The position numbers were made by a program, and so were the translations under genes. Source: an uncultured Bacilli bacterium (GTDB lineage Bacteria; Bacillota_I; Bacilli_A; RF39; UBA660). Taken from it: a stretch of 64,000 nucleotides of DNA. The stretch covers positions 4,255 to 68,254 of the forward strand of contig CAKPPI010000001.1 of assembly GCA_934177545.1 (NCBI GenBank). Reading direction: 5' to 3'. The notes beneath the pieces are model-generated. The model ran no database searches and was not told the origin of the DNA. It worked only from the letters and a program-made list of their open reading frames with translations. This document shows, piece after piece, positions 30,427 through 55,231 of the stretch (positions within the stretch are counted from its first letter, which is position 1; every line of letters starts with the position of its first letter).

Positions 30427-30503
30427 GTCTCAGTAGCTCAGCTGGATAGAGCATCGCCCTTCTAAGGCGAGTGTCATGGGTTCGAATCCCCTCTGGGACA
30501 CCA
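30427..30503 (+). tRNA. tRNA-Arg (anticodon TCT) with an encoded CCA end
   Basis: Cloverleaf with acceptor stem gtctcag/ctgggac, D-arm tagctcagctggatagagc, anticodon loop CTTCTAA, T-arm gggttcgaatccc. A terminator hairpin follows at 30516-30543. Confidence 0.9.
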
Positions 30504-40552: not shown

Positions 40553-41638
40553 TTAATCTTTTGCTTTTTCTATTAGTAATTTATTACTTTTTAGTCTTTC
40601 ATTATCAGGTGATATTTCTAAAGCTTTATTAATATAGTCTAAAGATTCTTGATATTTTCCTTGATAAAAACAACTGATTGATAACAAATCATAGATAGTA
40701 TGATCAAAACTAAATGGTTCATTTATATAAGTCTTTTGATGAGTTGTTATCTTTAAGGCTTCCAAACAATTTTTTTCTACTTCTTGATAGTTTTCTAGAT
40801 TATATTCTAAAAGAGCAAGTTCTACAAAAGCATCCCTTAAATAAGGTGCTTCTTTTATAGCTTCTTTATACCACATTTTAGCTTCCTTATACCTTTCTAG
40901 ATTAGTATAACATCTAGCAATAAAACGCATAGAAGCAGCTCGCTCATCACGCCAAGTAGCAGATTTTAACGATAGATGTTTAATTAGTGTATCAATCGCT
41001 TTATTAAAGTAACCATGATACATATATTCTCTTCCAAGATAATGCATATTTCTATCATCTGTTGGATCTTCCTTGATTGATAATTCAAGGAGGGGAAGAT
41101 AACTACTTCTACTTTTAGTTTTATCAGGGTAATGATTTAGAGTGATTAAGTCAGTAGTAAGTTTAATCTCTTTCTTATCACCTATATAGGAAAGAACTTC
41201 ATGAACAGGATGAGTCCAAGTATAATCATTCCTAGAATGTATTTTTTCTGTATAGAAGTTTATAATAGGTTTATTATTTTTATCTAGACTCCAGTTATAG
41301 TTATAAGCAAGTCGAGTAGTGTTTTCTTGCCATACTTCTTCAAGACTACTTCGCCAACCTTTAAGAAAAACTTCATCTAAATCAGTACAAACACAAATAT
41401 CAGTATCTTTAGGAACTAAGTCTAGTGATAAATTCCTTGCTATATCAAATCTAAAAGGTTTAATTTTTTTACTTTTAACATTAACACCTAAATCTTTTAA
41501 TAATTTTACAGTCTTATCAGTACTACCAGTATCAAGAACAATAATTTCATCCGCTTCTTTCATAGATTCTACCCATCTTTTAACATGCTTTTCTTCATTT
41601 TTACTAATGGCATAGACAATAACTTTGTATTTATGCAT
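40553..41638 (-). CDS. family-2 glycosyltransferase fused to a C-terminal TPR-repeat domain
   Basis: N-terminal GT-A motif VIVYAISKNEE...DEIIVLDTGSTD. The C-terminus has about five TPR-like repeats. It starts 1 nt after the collagen-like gene's stop. Confidence 0.7.
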   Translation of the reverse strand: MHKYKVIVYAISKNEEKHVKRWVESMKEADEIIVLDTGSTDKTVKLLKDLGVNVKSKKIKPFRFDIARNLSLDLVPKDTDICVCTDLDEVFLKGWRSSLEEVWQENTTRLAYNYNWSLDKNNKPIINFYTEKIHSRNDYTWTHPVHEVLSYIGDKKEIKLTTDLITLNHYPDKTKSRSSYLPLLELSIKEDPTDDRNMHYLGREYMYHGYFNKAIDTLIKHLSLKSATWRDERAASMRFIARCYTNLERYKEAKMWYKEAIKEAPYLRDAFVELALLEYNLENYQEVEKNCLEALKITTHQKTYINEPFSFDHTIYDLLSISCFYQGKYQESLDYINKALEISPDNERLKSNKLLIEKAKD

Positions 41639-41639
41639 A

Positions 41640-42461
41640 TTATCCTAATTTAATAATACTAACCCTTGCTCCTGTATTACTATCAAGTGTTAAGGTAAGT
41701 CCTGTTGCTGAATTAGCTACAAAATCTATAACATCTCCTGTAGCTAGAGTAGTAATGATACTTCCTGTGAATAATTTATTTTCATTAGCAGGAGCATTTA
41801 AAGTAATAGAGCTGCTATCAATTTCTGTATTATTTTTTCTAACAAATACGGTTATATCTGCTTGTTGGGAACTAGAAGCATCTAATAAATAGTAGATTTG
41901 GTAAGTACCAGCATCTCCTACAGTAATAGCATTAGAAGTAGTATAAGTAGTATTTAAACTAGGACCATTTGTTTGTAAAGGAATTTGTCCATCTTGATTA
42001 GGAGTAAGCGTTACTGTTTCAGCACCTTCTGTGTATCTTTCACCGTATGCTGCTATTCCTCCAGTAGGTCCAGTAGGTCCAGTGGGTCCTGTAGGTCCAG
42101 TAGGACCAGTTGCTCCAGTTAAACCAATAGGACCAATATTACCCTGAGGTCCAGTTGGCCCTGTTGGCCCAGTAGGACCCGTAGCACCTGTAGCACCAGT
42201 TAAACCAATAGGACCAATATTACCTTGAGGCCCAGTAGGTCCAGTGGGTCCTATACTTCCTCTTGGAATAGAAAAGTCTAAGATGACATTCTCATTAGTT
42301 CCACTATTAGTAACCGAAGCATTACTACCAGCATCAGTTGTAGTAGTAGTTCCTACCGTAATAGTAGCAGCACCAGCGGGTCCAGTAGGTCCAGTGGGTC
42401 CTTGTACATAACAAAACTTACATCTTGTTTTTTCTTTATTTTCATTACAGTTATCAAACAT
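41640..42461 (-). CDS. collagen-like triple-helix repeat protein with a C-terminal globular (BclA/C1q-like) domain
   Basis: More than 40 G-X-Y triplets ([22 protein letters not shown]...). It contains an ~81-bp internal direct repeat. Local GC is elevated. Confidence 0.8.
42058..42255 (-). repeat. GXY collagen triplet repeat tract containing an ~81-bp direct duplication
   Basis: The unit ccagttaaaccaataggaccaatattacc(c/t)tgagg occurs twice about 81 bp apart. Confidence 0.7.
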
Positions 42462-42760
42462 GTTTTTTTCTCCTTTCCTTATAGTTTATGCGAGTGAAAT
42501 ATTAGTTTTTAATAAATTTGTCTTATATGCTTTAATTTGTGATGAATAAATAAAAAAAGAAGAAATTATTATTGGGACAATAATGTTATTTGGCAGTTTT
42601 AAATATTAGTGGAGATAATGATAGAGACAGAAGATTTATCTTTAAAGTATTCTACTAGCTATATTTAAATAAACTAGACATAAAAATAGTAATAAATTAA
42701 AGGAATCACTAATACTCATAATGATTCCTTTTTAATATCATTTTTATAATATACTTAGAA

Positions 42761-43657
42761 TTAGTTATGTAATAAGAAATTAATCATTTGCTTAACTTCA
42801 TCTTCAGTCAATGTTATATCTTCACCAACTAATCCAATAATAGGGTGAATCCCATCTTTTTTATGAAAGTCTGAACCGATTGTTGTCTTTAAATTGTGTT
42901 TTTTAGCAAAATCATTCCAACGGACTATATCATTATGTTTGATATCATTACGATCTATATAAATATAGTTCGTTTCTATTCCATCTGGTTGCATTTCCAT
43001 AACTAACTTTTCGATATCTTCTTCTGTTAGATTATCTTCATAACTATATGCAACAGGATGAGCTAAAATAACCTTGCCACCGGCTTTATGTATAAGAGAA
43101 GAGGCTTCTTTTGGGCTAATCGTTTCTTTTTTTACATAAGCAGGACAACCTTCATTCATAATAGTTTCGATAAATTCTCCCATTTGGGGAACATAACCAA
43201 AAACTTCCTTTAATTTAGCTTCATTTTCTTTGTTTCCTATTACATCATTGGCAATATGAGCTTTTGTTACGGCATCTATTTTGTCAAGTTCATCTACTGC
43301 TACTTTATATCCTAATTCTTCTAGCTTTTTAGCAACATTTCTCAAGTATATATGTCTAGCATTTCTTAGATTATATAATTTTTCTCTAAACTCTTTATTG
43401 TTTAAATCAAAGTTGTAACCTAAAACATGTATACCACATTTCTTGGTTTTAGTAGAGATCTCTACACCTGGTATTAACTTAATACCTTTTTCTTTAGCAT
43501 ATTCAAAAAGCTCTTCATTATAAGCCTCAATTGTATCGTGATCACATATCGCAATAGTACTTACTTTATTTGTTAAAGCCTCATCTATAACTTCTCTTGG
43601 TGTTAAAGCACCATCTGAACAGACAGTGTGAATATGTAAATCTATTAATTTTTCCAT
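42761..43657 (-). CDS. PHP-domain phosphoesterase (TrpH/YciV-like)
   Basis: The N-terminal LIDLHIHTVCSDGALTP motif, then AICDHDT and LAHP metal-binding motifs. 298 aa. Confidence 0.6.
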   Translation of the reverse strand: MEKLIDLHIHTVCSDGALTPREVIDEALTNKVSTIAICDHDTIEAYNEELFEYAKEKGIKLIPGVEISTKTKKCGIHVLGYNFDLNNKEFREKLYNLRNARHIYLRNVAKKLEELGYKVAVDELDKIDAVTKAHIANDVIGNKENEAKLKEVFGYVPQMGEFIETIMNEGCPAYVKKETISPKEASSLIHKAGGKVILAHPVAYSYEDNLTEEDIEKLVMEMQPDGIETNYIYIDRNDIKHNDIVRWNDFAKKHNLKTTIGSDFHKKDGIHPIIGLVGEDITLTEDEVKQMINFLLHN

Positions 43658-44601
43658 GAATTTATTCTCCTTTTATATAATTTTTGTAATGTTTTATTTT
43701 CAAATCTCCTTTTCACAGAATCAGGAGATACTGAATCAAGTATTTTAACGGTTTCTTTTTCTGTCAACGTAGAAGCAACTGTGCTTCTGGCATAATCAAG
43801 CTTTTGTTTTAAAGTTTCTTCAAAGTTAAATTCACTCATACTATATAAGAAATCTAGTGTGAAATTATAAGCTTCATCATCTTTTTGCCATTTTTTTCTT
43901 AGTGAATCTGGCAGTATAGGTAGATATGGTATAGTATTCGTTTTAACTGAATTAATAACTGTAAAAGGAACTTGATCTAATAGTTTACTTAATTCTGAAT
44001 ATTTTATAACATGAATATCAAGTGGTAGCATTTTTCTAGGCATTTTACCATTTTCCAAATCATTAATAGTTTCTTTAAAATCCTTAATTGTCTGAATTGG
44101 ATTTACATCCGATGTATGCATATCAAGGGAATCAAATGTTTCCTTCAATTCTTTTTTAGCATCATCTACTTTAGAATCTTCACAGACCATCCACATATCA
44201 ATATCAGGTAAGCGATTTATTATTTTTCTAGGTTTTAATCCTTTTTCTAATCTAGGACAAGGAATACAGATTTGTTTTAAATCTTCCATATAAGGACCAT
44301 TTATTGGTAGGCAACTTTCGCAAGGCCATTTTTTTAACTTTGATTTTAATATAGTATTTTTTAATTCCTCATTATAACGCAATTGTTCTTGTATAATGGG
44401 TAATTTTCCTTCAAAGTTTTTATCTAGTGTATAAAATGGATAGCCAGTTCCAAATGATCCACAATATCCTGTTGTAAACTGCATAACTTCATTAATAATA
44501 TCAATATTCTTTTTTATGTACATTTTTTTAATATTATTATCTTCAAAATTACTTCTTTCAAATTTATTGGACCCTTCTACTGCTTCTAAACAAATATTCA
44601 T
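43645..44601 (-). CDS. hypothetical protein with a Pol-beta-like nucleotidyltransferase signature and an inserted CxxC...CxxC zinc ribbon
   Basis: GYCGSFGTG (hG[GS]), RLPDIDMWMV (DhDh), LPLDIHVI (third acidic residue), CESC...CIPCPR. Start taken at the internal Met (MNICLEAV) preceded by a GAGGGGGG RBS. It overlaps the PHP gene by 13 nt. Confidence 0.45.
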   Translation of the reverse strand: MNICLEAVEGSNKFERSNFEDNNIKKMYIKKNIDIINEVMQFTTGYCGSFGTGYPFYTLDKNFEGKLPIIQEQLRYNEELKNTILKSKLKKWPCESCLPINGPYMEDLKQICIPCPRLEKGLKPRKIINRLPDIDMWMVCEDSKVDDAKKELKETFDSLDMHTSDVNPIQTIKDFKETINDLENGKMPRKMLPLDIHVIKYSELSKLLDQVPFTVINSVKTNTIPYLPILPDSLRKKWQKDDEAYNFTLDFLYSMSEFNFEETLKQKLDYARSTVASTLTEKETVKILDSVSPDSVKRRFENKTLQKLYKRRINSWKN

Positions 44602-44855
44602 ATAAATTCCCCCCTCATTTTTTAGAAAAGATAGCATGTGTAATAGCTATTTACAAAGATATCTTCTCTTTATAATTTACTACTTAATTTAATTTTGGGT
44701 ATTAATATATGTAAAAATGTGTTGATATTATATCATGAGATAATAACATAAGTCAATCTTATTTTGAGTAAAGTGACTGAATTTATGATTAACTTATGAT
44801 AATGTCTTAAGCGTTAGATATATTTCTTGTTCAATTCTAGATATAATTTTATGTT

Positions 44856-45260
44856 TTAGTTGCTGTTAGTATTTATTAAATTACTATAGTATTTGGTTTT
44901 ACCAGTTAAAACACAATCATGGAAATTTTGCTTTTTATAAATATAGTTAATACTGTCATCTATTTCTTTTTTCTTATTGTTAAGTTCCAAAAGTTTATCA
45001 TTTAATATTTCTTTTCGTCTAGGAATAGAAGTTTCACTTTCTAGACAAAGTAGCATATACTCCTTAATCTCTTTAATGCTCATTCCACATCTCTTAAGAC
45101 AAGCAAGAGTATCTAACCAGGCAAGATCTTTATCATCAAATACTCTATAGTTATTTTTATTTCTTTTAACATTAGGAACTAATCCTTCATTACACTAATA
45201 CTTTAAACTATCATAAGATAGATTTCTTATTCTACATACTTCTTTCATTGAATATAACAT
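44856..45260 (-). pseudogene. MerR-family transcriptional regulator interrupted by an in-frame TAG
   Basis: The translation MLYSMKEVCRIRNLSYDSLKY*CNEGLVP...KDLAWLDTLACLKRCGMSIKEIKEYM shows the MerR HTH with a TAG (45195-45197) where MerR proteins normally carry Tyr. Only the 75-aa C-terminal ORF remains. Confidence 0.55.
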
Positions 45261-45272
45261 TTTACCCCCCAC

Positions 45273-46115
45273 CTATTTTATTACTTTTTCTTTAACTAGC
45301 ATTGGAATAGTATGTAACATGTAAGTACATTGATCATTTAGCATACAGTAATTTTCTAATCTACTAAATGATTTGGTTATATCAGAAGATTTGTTATTAT
45401 CTTTATTTGCTGATAGTAGCTTCTTACTTAACTCTTCTTTAGAATAATCTGATTTGATCTTATTTTGTTTAAATAAATCTTCAATAGTAAGTCTTATTTG
45501 TTGCTTTGAGTCTACTTGATTAATCATCTCTTTCATTTTTAGTAGTTGTTCTTTTGTGTAATGGTACTTATTTTGAATACATCTATCAAAATAAGTTAGT
45601 AATAAATCAGTTTGACTATTGTCTAATAGTTCATAATCTAACATATATGAAACCATATCTAGTTTTTTATCAATCATATCGTATCTCTTATAAAAAGGAT
45701 CTTCATCATATTCTATTCTTGCAAAAGATCTTGCAAAAAAATCAAATATCGTATAACCAGAAGTGAATGGTTCTATGCCTAAATCAACCTTATAATTATG
45801 TAAGATGTAATCTGCTAACTCCAAGCCGAAATTTTGTGGATTAACAGCTAAATTACCAAATACAGTTTCATTTCTTTTATATATACTGTTTTCAAACGGA
45901 TCGGTATAAGTTTTTACATGATTAATATCAAAACTTTTCTCTAATAACTTAGTTTCTGATGCTAAAACAATAAGCTTCAATGATTTCAGAGCATCAACAT
46001 TAGTTCTTCTTGCTAAGTATATACCCAGCTCATTTAAATTTTCTAAATCTTTAGTAGTATCATTCAATATATGAATTCCACTTTCTACATAACAGTTCAT
46101 AATAACACCTCTCAT
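45273..46115 (-). CDS. hypothetical protein (280 aa), co-oriented upstream of the disrupted merR
   Basis: ORF only. No recognised motifs. Confidence 0.45.
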   Translation of the reverse strand: MRGVIMNCYVESGIHILNDTTKDLENLNELGIYLARRTNVDALKSLKLIVLASETKLLEKSFDINHVKTYTDPFENSIYKRNETVFGNLAVNPQNFGLELADYILHNYKVDLGIEPFTSGYTIFDFFARSFARIEYDEDPFYKRYDMIDKKLDMVSYMLDYELLDNSQTDLLLTYFDRCIQNKYHYTKEQLLKMKEMINQVDSKQQIRLTIEDLFKQNKIKSDYSKEELSKKLLSANKDNNKSSDITKSFSRLENYCMLNDQCTYMLHTIPMLVKEKVIK

Positions 46116-54959: not shown

Positions 54960-55231
54960 ACAAGTTATAAAATAGTATTGTAAACTTTACTAGAAAACGT
55001 TGATGAAGAGAAGTAGTAATACTTGACTTATAAGAGAAGCTGTGGTTGGTGAAAACAGTTAAGAAAAGTATTAACGAATAACACTTCGGAGTGCTTAAAG
55101 AATAAAGTAGACTAAGCCGGGTAGACTCCCGTTAACAAGATAAGCGATTATCATGCTTGATAATAAATTGGGTGGTACCGCGGGTAAAAGACTCGTCCCT
55201 TAACTGGGATTAGAGTCTTTTTCGTTTTCTA
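54960..55231 (+). promoter_or_regulatory. T-box leader (candidate Asn AAC specifier) upstream of gatCAB-aspS2
   Basis: Stem-I distal motif GGUUGGUGAAAACAGUU. T-box sequence AAAUUGGGUGGUACCGCGG (55166-55184). Terminator aagactc...gagtctt followed by a T-run (55187-55231). Confidence 0.65.

Follow-up and report, generated by a model that had tools for sequence, protein, structure and literature searches.

A predicted Pol-beta-type nucleotidyltransferase family, new to curated databases, is strictly paired with an RNase AM-like PHP phosphoesterase in uncultured gut Firmicutes

We analyzed a 64,000-nucleotide stretch of DNA from an uncultured Bacilli bacterium of the RF39 lineage (contig CAKPPI010000001.1, positions 4,255 to 68,254; hereafter the window), and focused on two overlapping genes on its minus strand. 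Gene A (43645-44601) encodes a 318-amino acid (aa) protein of an unclassified family, predicted to have a Pol-beta-type nucleotidyltransferase (NTase) fold, an insert with four cysteines (Cys4), and a C-terminal helical domain. Gene B (42761-43657) encodes a 298-aa PHP phosphoesterase of the TrpH/YciV/RNase AM (COG0613) family whose trinuclear metal site is complete. The explanation that we favor, with a confidence that falls a little short of even, is that A and B would form an obligate two-enzyme module acting on the same nucleotide or RNA-end substrate. In this explanation we infer the catalysis, the physical complex and the substrate.

The two genes were found side by side throughout the family. 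Gene A was followed directly, on the same strand, by a PHP gene in 80 of 80 loci retrieved from GTDB, with one genome taken per species. The two genes overlapped in 56 of these loci, by exactly 13 nucleotides (nt) in 42, and the remaining junctions were gaps of 1-47 nt with a Shine-Dalgarno sequence. A second set of 88 loci combined 80 from a metagenome scan for a distant branch with 8 look-ups of individual distant members. In this set the PHP gene was complete in 75, cut by a contig end in 5 and missing from none; the other 8 had no downstream room. Over both sets, PHP lay 3' of A in all 160 loci with downstream sequence, and the pairing held in members 19-29% identical to window protein A and in lineages with 39-52% GC. 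An earlier reading of this DNA from its letters (hereafter the sequence-only reading) had proposed such a neighborhood survey, and the pair was kept together at every locus examined. Clustering of about 1,700 neighboring open reading frames (ORFs) identified no third gene universally linked to the pair.

The divergence of the two proteins is also coupled, as the correlation between pairwise identities in A and those in B is 0.89 (10 loci). In the 10 loci that also carry leucyl-tRNA synthetase (LeuRS), A and B averaged 57% and 64% pairwise identity and LeuRS averaged 55%; A and B evolve as slowly as LeuRS. Measured against close relatives, dN/dS of the pair was 0.07-0.35, and we conclude from these values that both are real genes under purifying selection. 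The carriers are uncultured gut Firmicutes (RF39-like Bacilli and CAG-type Clostridia) together with a few other lineages, and the pair is kept in reduced chromosomes of 1.3-1.7 Mb. The A family was not found in 2.9 million viral contigs (IMG/VR), 72,556 plasmids (PLSDB) or 50,697 phages (INPHARED). Because evolution is slow, the mobile collections lack the family and the neighbors are housekeeping genes (see below), the pair probably serves a chromosomal, housekeeping-like core function in its lineages.

Protein A gave zero matches in Pfam, NCBIfam, PADLOC and PHROGs, and profile searches of the PDB returned only RanBP2/Nup153 zinc fingers (E = 0.3-2). When NTase family models were considered, among them Pfam NTP_transf_2, DUF4111, KNTase, RlaP, DUF1814/AbiEii and SMODS, no NTase family was found at E<=1 in window protein A or in any of 66 divergent members (Pfam). 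We also aligned the family profile with hhalign to approximate AadA and KNTase sequences; neither alignment was significant, and the one to AadA placed the DxD of A onto the AadA SDIDLLV strand. A set of 5.8 billion proteins contained 459 homologues of A, none with a Pfam domain and none with a name beyond "hypothetical protein". Clustered at 50% identity, the family comprises 195 clusters out of 1.84 billion representatives; the 150 matches listed are all at most 375 aa, and no fusions were seen among them. The A family is absent from every curated library tested and is new to curated databases.

Conservation was counted in 66-72 full-length representatives of A that are 17-46% identical. Invariant residues are P55, C112, C115, P124, R125, D133, D135 and D195, and near-invariant residues are G53, E72, W92, C94, C97, P132, S164, D165, H197, W238 and D250. 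The Pol-beta superfamily is recognized in part by two acidic elements, [DE]h[DE]h on strand beta-2 and h[DE]h on beta-3, and A carries all three carboxylates. The DxD, D133-I-D135 (44197-44205, minus strand), opens predicted strand beta-2 (LPDIDMWMV; E134-140), with the invariant P124-R125 8-9 residues before it. The third carboxylate, in D195-I-H197 (44011-44019, minus strand; H197 at least 90% conserved), lies on predicted strand beta-3 (LPLDIHVIK; E194-200). The DxD and the third acidic residue named by the sequence-only reading are therefore invariant and, with the CxxC...CxxC described below, show the tightest constraint in the family.

The glycine element of the fold is less canonical. 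Superfamily members have an hG[GS] loop after beta-1, 9-15 residues before the DxD. In window protein A, a glycine-rich loop (GYCGSFGTGYPFY, residues 45-57; 44431-44469, minus strand) comes right after predicted strand beta-1 (E46-51). The sequence-only reading had taken its "GS" as an NTase hallmark; G48-S49 is present in window protein A and variable across the family, and what is conserved instead is GxG[YF]P, or G51-x-G53-[YF]-P55, with G53 nearly invariant and P55 invariant. This motif sits about 80 residues ahead of the DxD, compared with about 12 in the canonical spacing, and we presume that its loop is the counterpart of the NTase hG[GS] loop. Between the loop and the DxD lies a zinc-ribbon-like Cys4 insert, W92-x-C94-x2-C97...C112-x2-C115 (44257-44328, minus strand), which confirms the CxxC...CxxC element that had been noticed there (C94/C97/C112/C115). 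C112 and C115 are invariant, and W92, C94 and C97 are at least 90% conserved. The insert has a weak RanBP2/NZF-type signature (W-x-C-x2-C...C-x2-C), and weak Pfam zinc-finger matches to zf-Sec23_Sec24, NZF and RanBP occurred in 11, 5 and 4 of 66 members, respectively. Its cysteine pattern suggests that the insert binds metal.

An AlphaFold2 model of window protein A, built from a 27-sequence alignment, had a pLDDT of 89.9 and a pTM of 0.89. Its helices (H) and strands (E) run H24-41, E46-51, the glycine loop, H71-87, the Cys4 region, E134-140 (DxD), H142-158, E194-200 (D195) and H201-221, after which the model ends in a helical C-terminal domain. This succession matches the minimal Pol-beta core order alpha1-beta1-alpha2-beta2-alpha3-beta3-alpha4, except for an insertion of about 80 residues between beta-1 and beta-2. 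A Foldseek search of the PDB with this model gave a list dominated by NTase folds, namely AAD(9), AadA, ANT-3,9, Hailong HalB, Cid1, small alarmone synthetase and MNT. Since the matches of window protein A were non-significant, we also modeled P0217, a distant member 22% identical to it. The P0217 model (pLDDT 95.4, pTM 0.91) showed the same order of core elements and matched AAD(9) 6sxj at E=7.5e-4 with probability 0.98 and AAD(9) 6xz0 at E=2e-3 with probability 0.96. AadA and ANT-3,9 followed with probability 0.4-0.6, the AAD(9)/AadA matches covered about 340 columns across both domains, and Pol beta, TdT, Pol lambda, MntA, DncV and the Sulfolobus NTase 2rff ranked lower. Significant structural similarity to the Pol-beta superfamily was thus found through family member P0217. 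The sequence-only reading had assigned a Pol-beta NTase fold to the upstream protein and had suggested structure prediction with Foldseek as a check. The check found an NTase fold, and the assignment is upheld by the P0217 match, the NTase-dominated lists, the invariant DxD...D and the core order. Judging from these models, A is a member of the Pol-beta-type NTase superfamily at the level of its fold.

The best structural matches of the family are the ANT(9)/ANT(3'')(9) adenylyltransferases (AAD(9) 6sxj/6xz0; AadA 5g4a/5luh). In both these enzymes and A, an N-terminal Pol-beta core with its DxD on beta-2 and its third carboxylate on beta-3 precedes a helical domain at the C terminus. They differ in that no sequence similarity is detectable and TM-scores are 0.26-0.37, and in that A has the insert of about 80 residues with its Cys4 and an extra N-terminal helix pair. 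Because A, unlike these enzymes, is always PHP-paired, chromosomal and slowly evolving, we do not regard it as a resistance gene.

Protein B could be placed by sequence. It matched Pfam PHP at 2e-10 and, in NCBIfam, 3',5'-nucleoside bisphosphate phosphatase at 6e-42 (144 bits) and RNase RNM at 3e-40 (138 bits). These scores are far below the equivalog cut-offs (400 and 375 bits), so that neither equivalog test was passed. DNA-polymerase PHP domains matched only at 1e-8 to 1e-9, and none of the PolX models in NCBIfam matched. Full-length alignments to solved structures included E. coli RNase AM (7ug9, 1.7e-24), 9etk, Cv1693 (2yb1) and 3e0f, with E = 1e-24 to 1e-21. Residues 4-266 of B align with 9-258 of 7ug9, insertion lobe included. 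The nine metal ligands are H8, H10, D15, H40, E66, H77, H200, D263 and H265. In 73 orthologues each of them is conserved to at least 97%, and together they fit the trinuclear-site signature HHDHEH[C/H]DH of PHP enzymes (PMC12926913). The full-length alignment with its lobe and the nine ligands are common to B and RNase AM/YciV/TrpH/Cv1693, and B is about 30% identical to RNase AM/Cv1693, with 138-144 bits against cut-offs of 375-400. From these comparisons we assign B to the TrpH/YciV/RNase AM family, as the sequence-only reading had done, within a separate subfamily and not as an orthologue of either characterized enzyme.

Characterized members of the RNase AM branch hydrolyze pAp and degrade short 5'-phosphorylated oligonucleotides in the 5'-to-3' direction (PMC11528712), mature rRNA 5' ends (PMC7261194) and strip FAD caps off RNA 5' ends (PMC9410882). 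By analogy with RNase AM/Cv1693, B would be expected to hydrolyze the 3' phosphoester of a 5'-phosphorylated nucleoside. Full-text literature searches turned up no NTase partner for the characterized RNase AM/TrpH enzymes, and none is known to us.

The arrangement of the two genes suggests that they are expressed together. All features in this paragraph are on the minus strand unless marked otherwise. Re-reading of the ORFs bore out the two overlapping frames and the 13-nt overlap that had been reported for them. The A stop and the B start share this overlap (ATGGAAAAATTAA, 43645-43657), and the Shine-Dalgarno sequence of B, AAGGAG (43667-43672), lies within A; both features argue for translational coupling. 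The sequence-only reading had given the pair a span of 42761-44637. The upstream frame is indeed open from 44637, and the start is the ATG at 44601. We place it there because a Shine-Dalgarno sequence (GAGGGGGG, 44609-44616) lies 7 nt 5' of this ATG, the homologues all align from M13 of the longer ORF, public gene calls give 318 aa, and the 44637 ATG is lost in a close relative (locus L004). The Shine-Dalgarno sequence of A is kept in relatives L001-L004 and in L007. About 125 nt 5' of A is a promoter-like site of sigma-70 type (44727-44756). It reads TTGACT-18-TGATATAAT from 44756 to 44727, with a TATAAT hexamer, a TG extension and 11/12 matches, is the top score of the region, and is kept in L001-L004. 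At 30 nt past the B stop, a hairpin with a T-rich tail resembles an intrinsic terminator (42699-42731); it is the sole such site in 42400-45400, where shuffled sequences average 0.5. Both sites are consensus matches, and because they flank A-B the pair looks like a self-contained bicistronic unit. As part of our overall explanation, and with the same slightly less than even confidence, A and B would constitute one bicistronic, translationally coupled operon. The leader upstream of A is conserved solely among relatives more than 94% identical, and an Rfam search around the pair found neither a riboswitch nor any other RNA family. The sole Rfam matches within the window are a T-box leader (141 bits; 54991-55203, plus strand), located 5' of a gatCAB-type operon, and one tRNA gene (30427-30500, plus strand).

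Our proposal for the function of the module is as follows. A would be an active, highly divergent member of the Pol-beta superfamily, with an architecture nearest that of the two-domain ANT(9)/AadA enzymes. Using two metals bound by D133, D135 and D195, it would transfer a nucleoside monophosphate from a nucleoside triphosphate onto a hydroxyl acceptor. The most likely acceptor would be the 3'-OH of a nucleotide, a short oligonucleotide or an RNA end, and it would sit between the NTase core, Cys4 insert and helical C-terminal domain. B would grip a 5'-phosphorylated nucleoside and cut the phosphoester at its 3' oxygen, converting pNp to pN and inorganic phosphate, or pNpN... to pN and pN..., and would thereby either trim or clean the molecule extended by A or degrade the product of A. 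We suggest a complex, or consecutive steps on one substrate, because translation is apparently coupled, co-occurrence is obligate, divergence is correlated and the active sites are intact. What we observed, and what this builds on, are the fold class, the gene structure, the intact catalytic residues, the constant co-occurrence, the slow rate of evolution and the lack of the family in collections of mobile elements. A more specific version, in which A tails or repairs RNA 3' ends and B trims 5' ends, is doubtful by itself and takes perhaps a part of the confidence that we place in the module.

The genes around the pair were surveyed for further clues. In the window, the pair belongs to a minus-strand block consisting of a GT2-TPR glycosyltransferase, a BclA-like collagen protein, B, A, a MerR remnant and a 280-aa hypothetical protein, embedded in an otherwise plus-strand housekeeping region (hisS-aspS, uppP, hrcA-grpE-dnaK-dnaJ). 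The host genome has 28% GC, and the locus is 96% identical to "Clostridium sp. CAG:451". The sequence-only reading had seen an island of unannotatable genes here. This setting is incidental, as the hypothetical and MerR genes adjoin the pair only in relatives more than 90% identical; outside the closest relatives, the pair lies among ordinary housekeeping genes. The neighbors are mostly aminoacyl-tRNA synthetases (aaRSs), MurJ-like, FemAB, MurI, UvrA/B, ClpX, RsmH, a RumA-type methyltransferase, MnmA and ribosomal protein S16. UvrA and UvrB are neighbors of the pair in three loci, and serine recombinase genes are nearby in three loci.

The MerR-family gene (44856-45260, minus strand; 134 codons) is disrupted, as had been noticed, by a single in-frame TAG at 45195-45197, which is codon 22 (SLKY-stop-CNEGL). 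L004 has an uninterrupted 134-aa version, and the TAG is either a recent pseudogene mutation or a sequencing error. We considered MerR as a regulator of the pair and rejected it, since only the closest relatives have the gene beside the pair and the window copy is a pseudogene. The 280-aa protein (45273-46115, minus strand) has no library match and has homologues only in L001-L004, split by a frameshift in L001. Immediately 3' of the pair (40553-42461, minus strand) are the BclA-like collagen-repeat protein (Collagen and BclA_C domains) and the GT2 glycosyltransferase with TPR, which look like a cassette for exosporium or surface glycoproteins; L082 and L097 also have a collagen-like gene near the pair.

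Two families that act on the phosphates of nucleotides or nucleotide sugars, CYTH and Zeta_toxin, recur beside the pair. A gene for a CYTH protein (triphosphate tunnel metalloenzyme) lies 16 nt past PHP in L087 (7913-8509) and L088 (3559-4155). In L008 and L010 a CYTH gene lies two genes 5' of A, and the gene between encodes a 468-aa thymidylate-synthase-like (ThyA-like) plus DUF4346 protein. The A proteins of the two CYTH-linked lineages are only about 24% identical. In 13 of the 80 loci of the first set and 32 of the 88 in the second, a P-loop kinase of the Zeta_toxin family (PF06414, 112-124 bits) is encoded right 5' of A on the same strand. The arrangement was noted in many Clostridia (L041, L054, L056, L060, L068, L069, L071, L076-L078; L101-L110, L137-L168). 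A 75-aa epsilon-like ORF usually comes before the kinase gene, and in L101-L110 the NERD-HRDC gene and the kinase leave no room for one. On a neighbor-joining tree of A, Zeta adjacency is limited to one Clostridia super-clade and is patchy inside it. We speculate that these CYTH and Zeta neighbors could be a source of 5'- or 3'-phosphate ends for the pair, or could change such ends. CYTH in two unrelated lineages and Zeta kinases in many Clostridia, both being phosphate-end families, were counted in favor of a nucleotide or RNA-end substrate.

Synthetase genes adjoin the pair in unrelated gene orders, and include TyrRS/TrpRS-type (with a 1-nt gap), ArgRS, AlaRS, PheRS alpha/beta and LeuRS genes (L083, L085, L081, L091/L095, L096-L100, the RF39-like L008-L028, L035 and L051). 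Together with MnmA, RumA-type, RsmH and S16 neighbors they may suggest a connection with translation or tRNA, which we take as a lead and not as evidence. The class II CCA-adding motif GGxVRD was not found in the retrieved DNA and the window, a sample far too small to infer absence. In L010 and L012, the LeuRS encoded 5' of A (937-aa ORF) has an insert with a Nudix box (GGx5Ex7REVxEETG), which the 797-aa LeuRS of sister genomes does not have.

Several observations weigh against a module that acts on a nucleotide or RNA end. Sequence profiles link A to no NTase family, and the best Foldseek match of window protein A itself, AAD(9), was non-significant (E=0.22, TM 0.27). The nearest structural relatives, ANT(9)/AadA and MntA, modify small molecules or proteins and not RNA. 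CCA-adding enzymes and poly(A) polymerase were not among the top Foldseek matches, where one terminal uridylyltransferase (Cid1, 4e80) appeared at rank 29 for window protein A. With ANT- and MntA-like relatives at the top and RNA-specific NTases off it, the RNA-end version is weakened. In addition, RNase AM-type enzymes work from the 5' end while NTases extend 3' ends, so that the chemical link is not obvious. The enrichment of aaRS neighbors is marginal, at most about two-fold over chance on a rough estimate. Finally, the family is rare for a core function, with 118 hits in 185,579 species genomes under strict patterns, and the 195 clusters noted above show the same rarity.

The main rival explanation, which we consider unlikely, is that the pair acts as a writer and an eraser: A would make a linear di- or oligonucleotide signal or AMPylate a hydroxyl of a metabolite or protein, and B would hydrolyze the product and set its level. 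An NTase joined to a phosphohydrolase is a recurring arrangement, as in GlnD and SpoT-like enzymes, and this was counted for the writer-eraser reading. The small-molecule adenylyltransferases ANT(9)/AadA and the protein AMPylase MntA are the nearest structures to A, with DncV and the oligonucleotide synthase HalB also matching. RNase AM-type enzymes, in turn, efficiently cleave pGpG/pApA-type dinucleotides and pAp (PMC11528712). Yet no receptor or effector gene is conserved beside the pair in the locus sets examined, and there would seem to be little point in co-translating a synthase and the hydrolase of its product without a regulator. LeuRS-like slow evolution and a housekeeping context fit a metabolic or RNA-processing role better. 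A conflict system, such as a toxin-antitoxin, abortive infection or anti-phage system, seems quite improbable to us. Here A would be a toxic NTase (MenT/AbiEii, MNT) or a signal synthase (CBASS/Hailong), with B neutralizing its product or serving as the effector nuclease. Patchiness and rarity of the family would suit this, as would weak structural matches to MntA and HalB, the Zeta_toxin kinases with their frequent epsilon-like ORF right upstream, and the nearby serine recombinases. The Zeta adjacency, however, is confined to the one Clostridia super-clade, the family has no PADLOC or PHROG match and was not found in the viral, plasmid and phage collections, and no HEPN, AbiEi, effector or channel gene of the kind that marks CBASS, Hailong, AbiE/MenT or MNT-HEPN systems is conserved nearby. 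Evolution at a LeuRS-like rate, with B more conserved than A, the housekeeping context and retention in 1.3-1.7 Mb genomes also speak against it.

Comparably improbable is the possibility that A is no transferase, and instead either is a metal-dependent nuclease or serves, without catalysis of its own, as an RNA-binding subunit that gives the PHP enzyme its specificity, the NTase-like core of A being a relic. That no sequence method ties A to an NTase family and that the canonical GS is not conserved would fit this, and the Cys4 element with many conserved basic and aromatic residues suggests nucleic-acid binding, next to a B that is the more conserved partner. Set against this is the Foldseek probability of 0.98 between P0217 and an active adenylyltransferase. 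Moreover, the three metal-binding aspartates at the NTase positions and the P-R before the DxD are invariant across members about 20% identical, which argues that A has retained catalysis. The least probable alternative, and one that we hardly credit, was raised by the sequence-only reading, namely a split PolX-like DNA repair system in which A would close short gaps in DNA and B would clean up 3' ends, like the PHP domain of bacterial PolX. The NTase-then-PHP gene order does mirror the PolX domain order, Pol beta, Pol lambda and TdT were among the weak P0217 matches (E = 0.7-2.4), and UvrA/UvrB are neighbors in three loci. B, however, is of the RNase AM/TrpH type with the insertion lobe, on the RNase AM/bisphosphate-phosphatase branch, and matches no PolX model, and the best structural matches of A are ANT-type enzymes, with Pol beta sharing the core alone over about 155 columns (TM 0.15). 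The same reading had already remarked that A lacks PolX HhH motifs, and in agreement no HhH or PolX Pfam domains were found in A or 66 members.

Known systems offer partial parallels to the two-enzyme module that we favor. The CCA-adding enzyme with an HD domain and GlnD (NTase plus HD) join an NTase to a metal-dependent phosphoesterase, which either readies the end for nucleotidylation or undoes it. They combine a class II NTase with HD, whereas A-B would combine a Pol-beta/ANT-like core with PHP, so that the likeness is one of functional analogy only. Bacterial PolX, a Pol-beta-like polymerase fused to a PHP exonuclease, has the same order of NTase and PHP. PolX proteins are fused and have conserved 8-kDa and polymerase domains (PMC12926913), whereas A and B are separate proteins, B belongs to another PHP branch, A is without HhH, 8-kDa, fingers and thumb elements, and nothing points to a DNA substrate. 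The theme of NTase plus phosphohydrolase is thus known, from PolX, the CCA-adding enzyme with HD and GlnD; the A family and this pairing are new. In the full-text literature, we found this pairing, a zinc element inside the NTase core and the strict conservation not described.

Protein A represents an NTase family outside all curated databases, with an unusual zinc-binding-type insert in its catalytic core and an invariant active site. Strict pairing and LeuRS-like conservation point to an important step of nucleotide or RNA metabolism, which would run in abundant uncultured human-gut bacteria with small genomes, where each kept gene informs. We can also imagine, and think unlikely, a bolder form of this proposal, in which A would be a new NTase class for RNA/tRNA 3'-end addition or repair, or for a linear nucleotide signal, obligately complexed with a PHP exonuclease/phosphatase that depends on a 5' phosphate, as a core system of reduced-genome Firmicutes and some other lineages. 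If true, the pair would either stand in for known bacterial RNA-end enzymes (CCA-adding enzyme, poly(A) polymerase and nanoRNases) as a non-orthologous substitute or work alongside them. Knowing the substrate could add an enzyme pair to bacterial RNA-end processing or to nanoRNA/pAp turnover, and would give hundreds of "hypothetical proteins" a function and the still poorly understood TrpH/RNase AM family a first partner.

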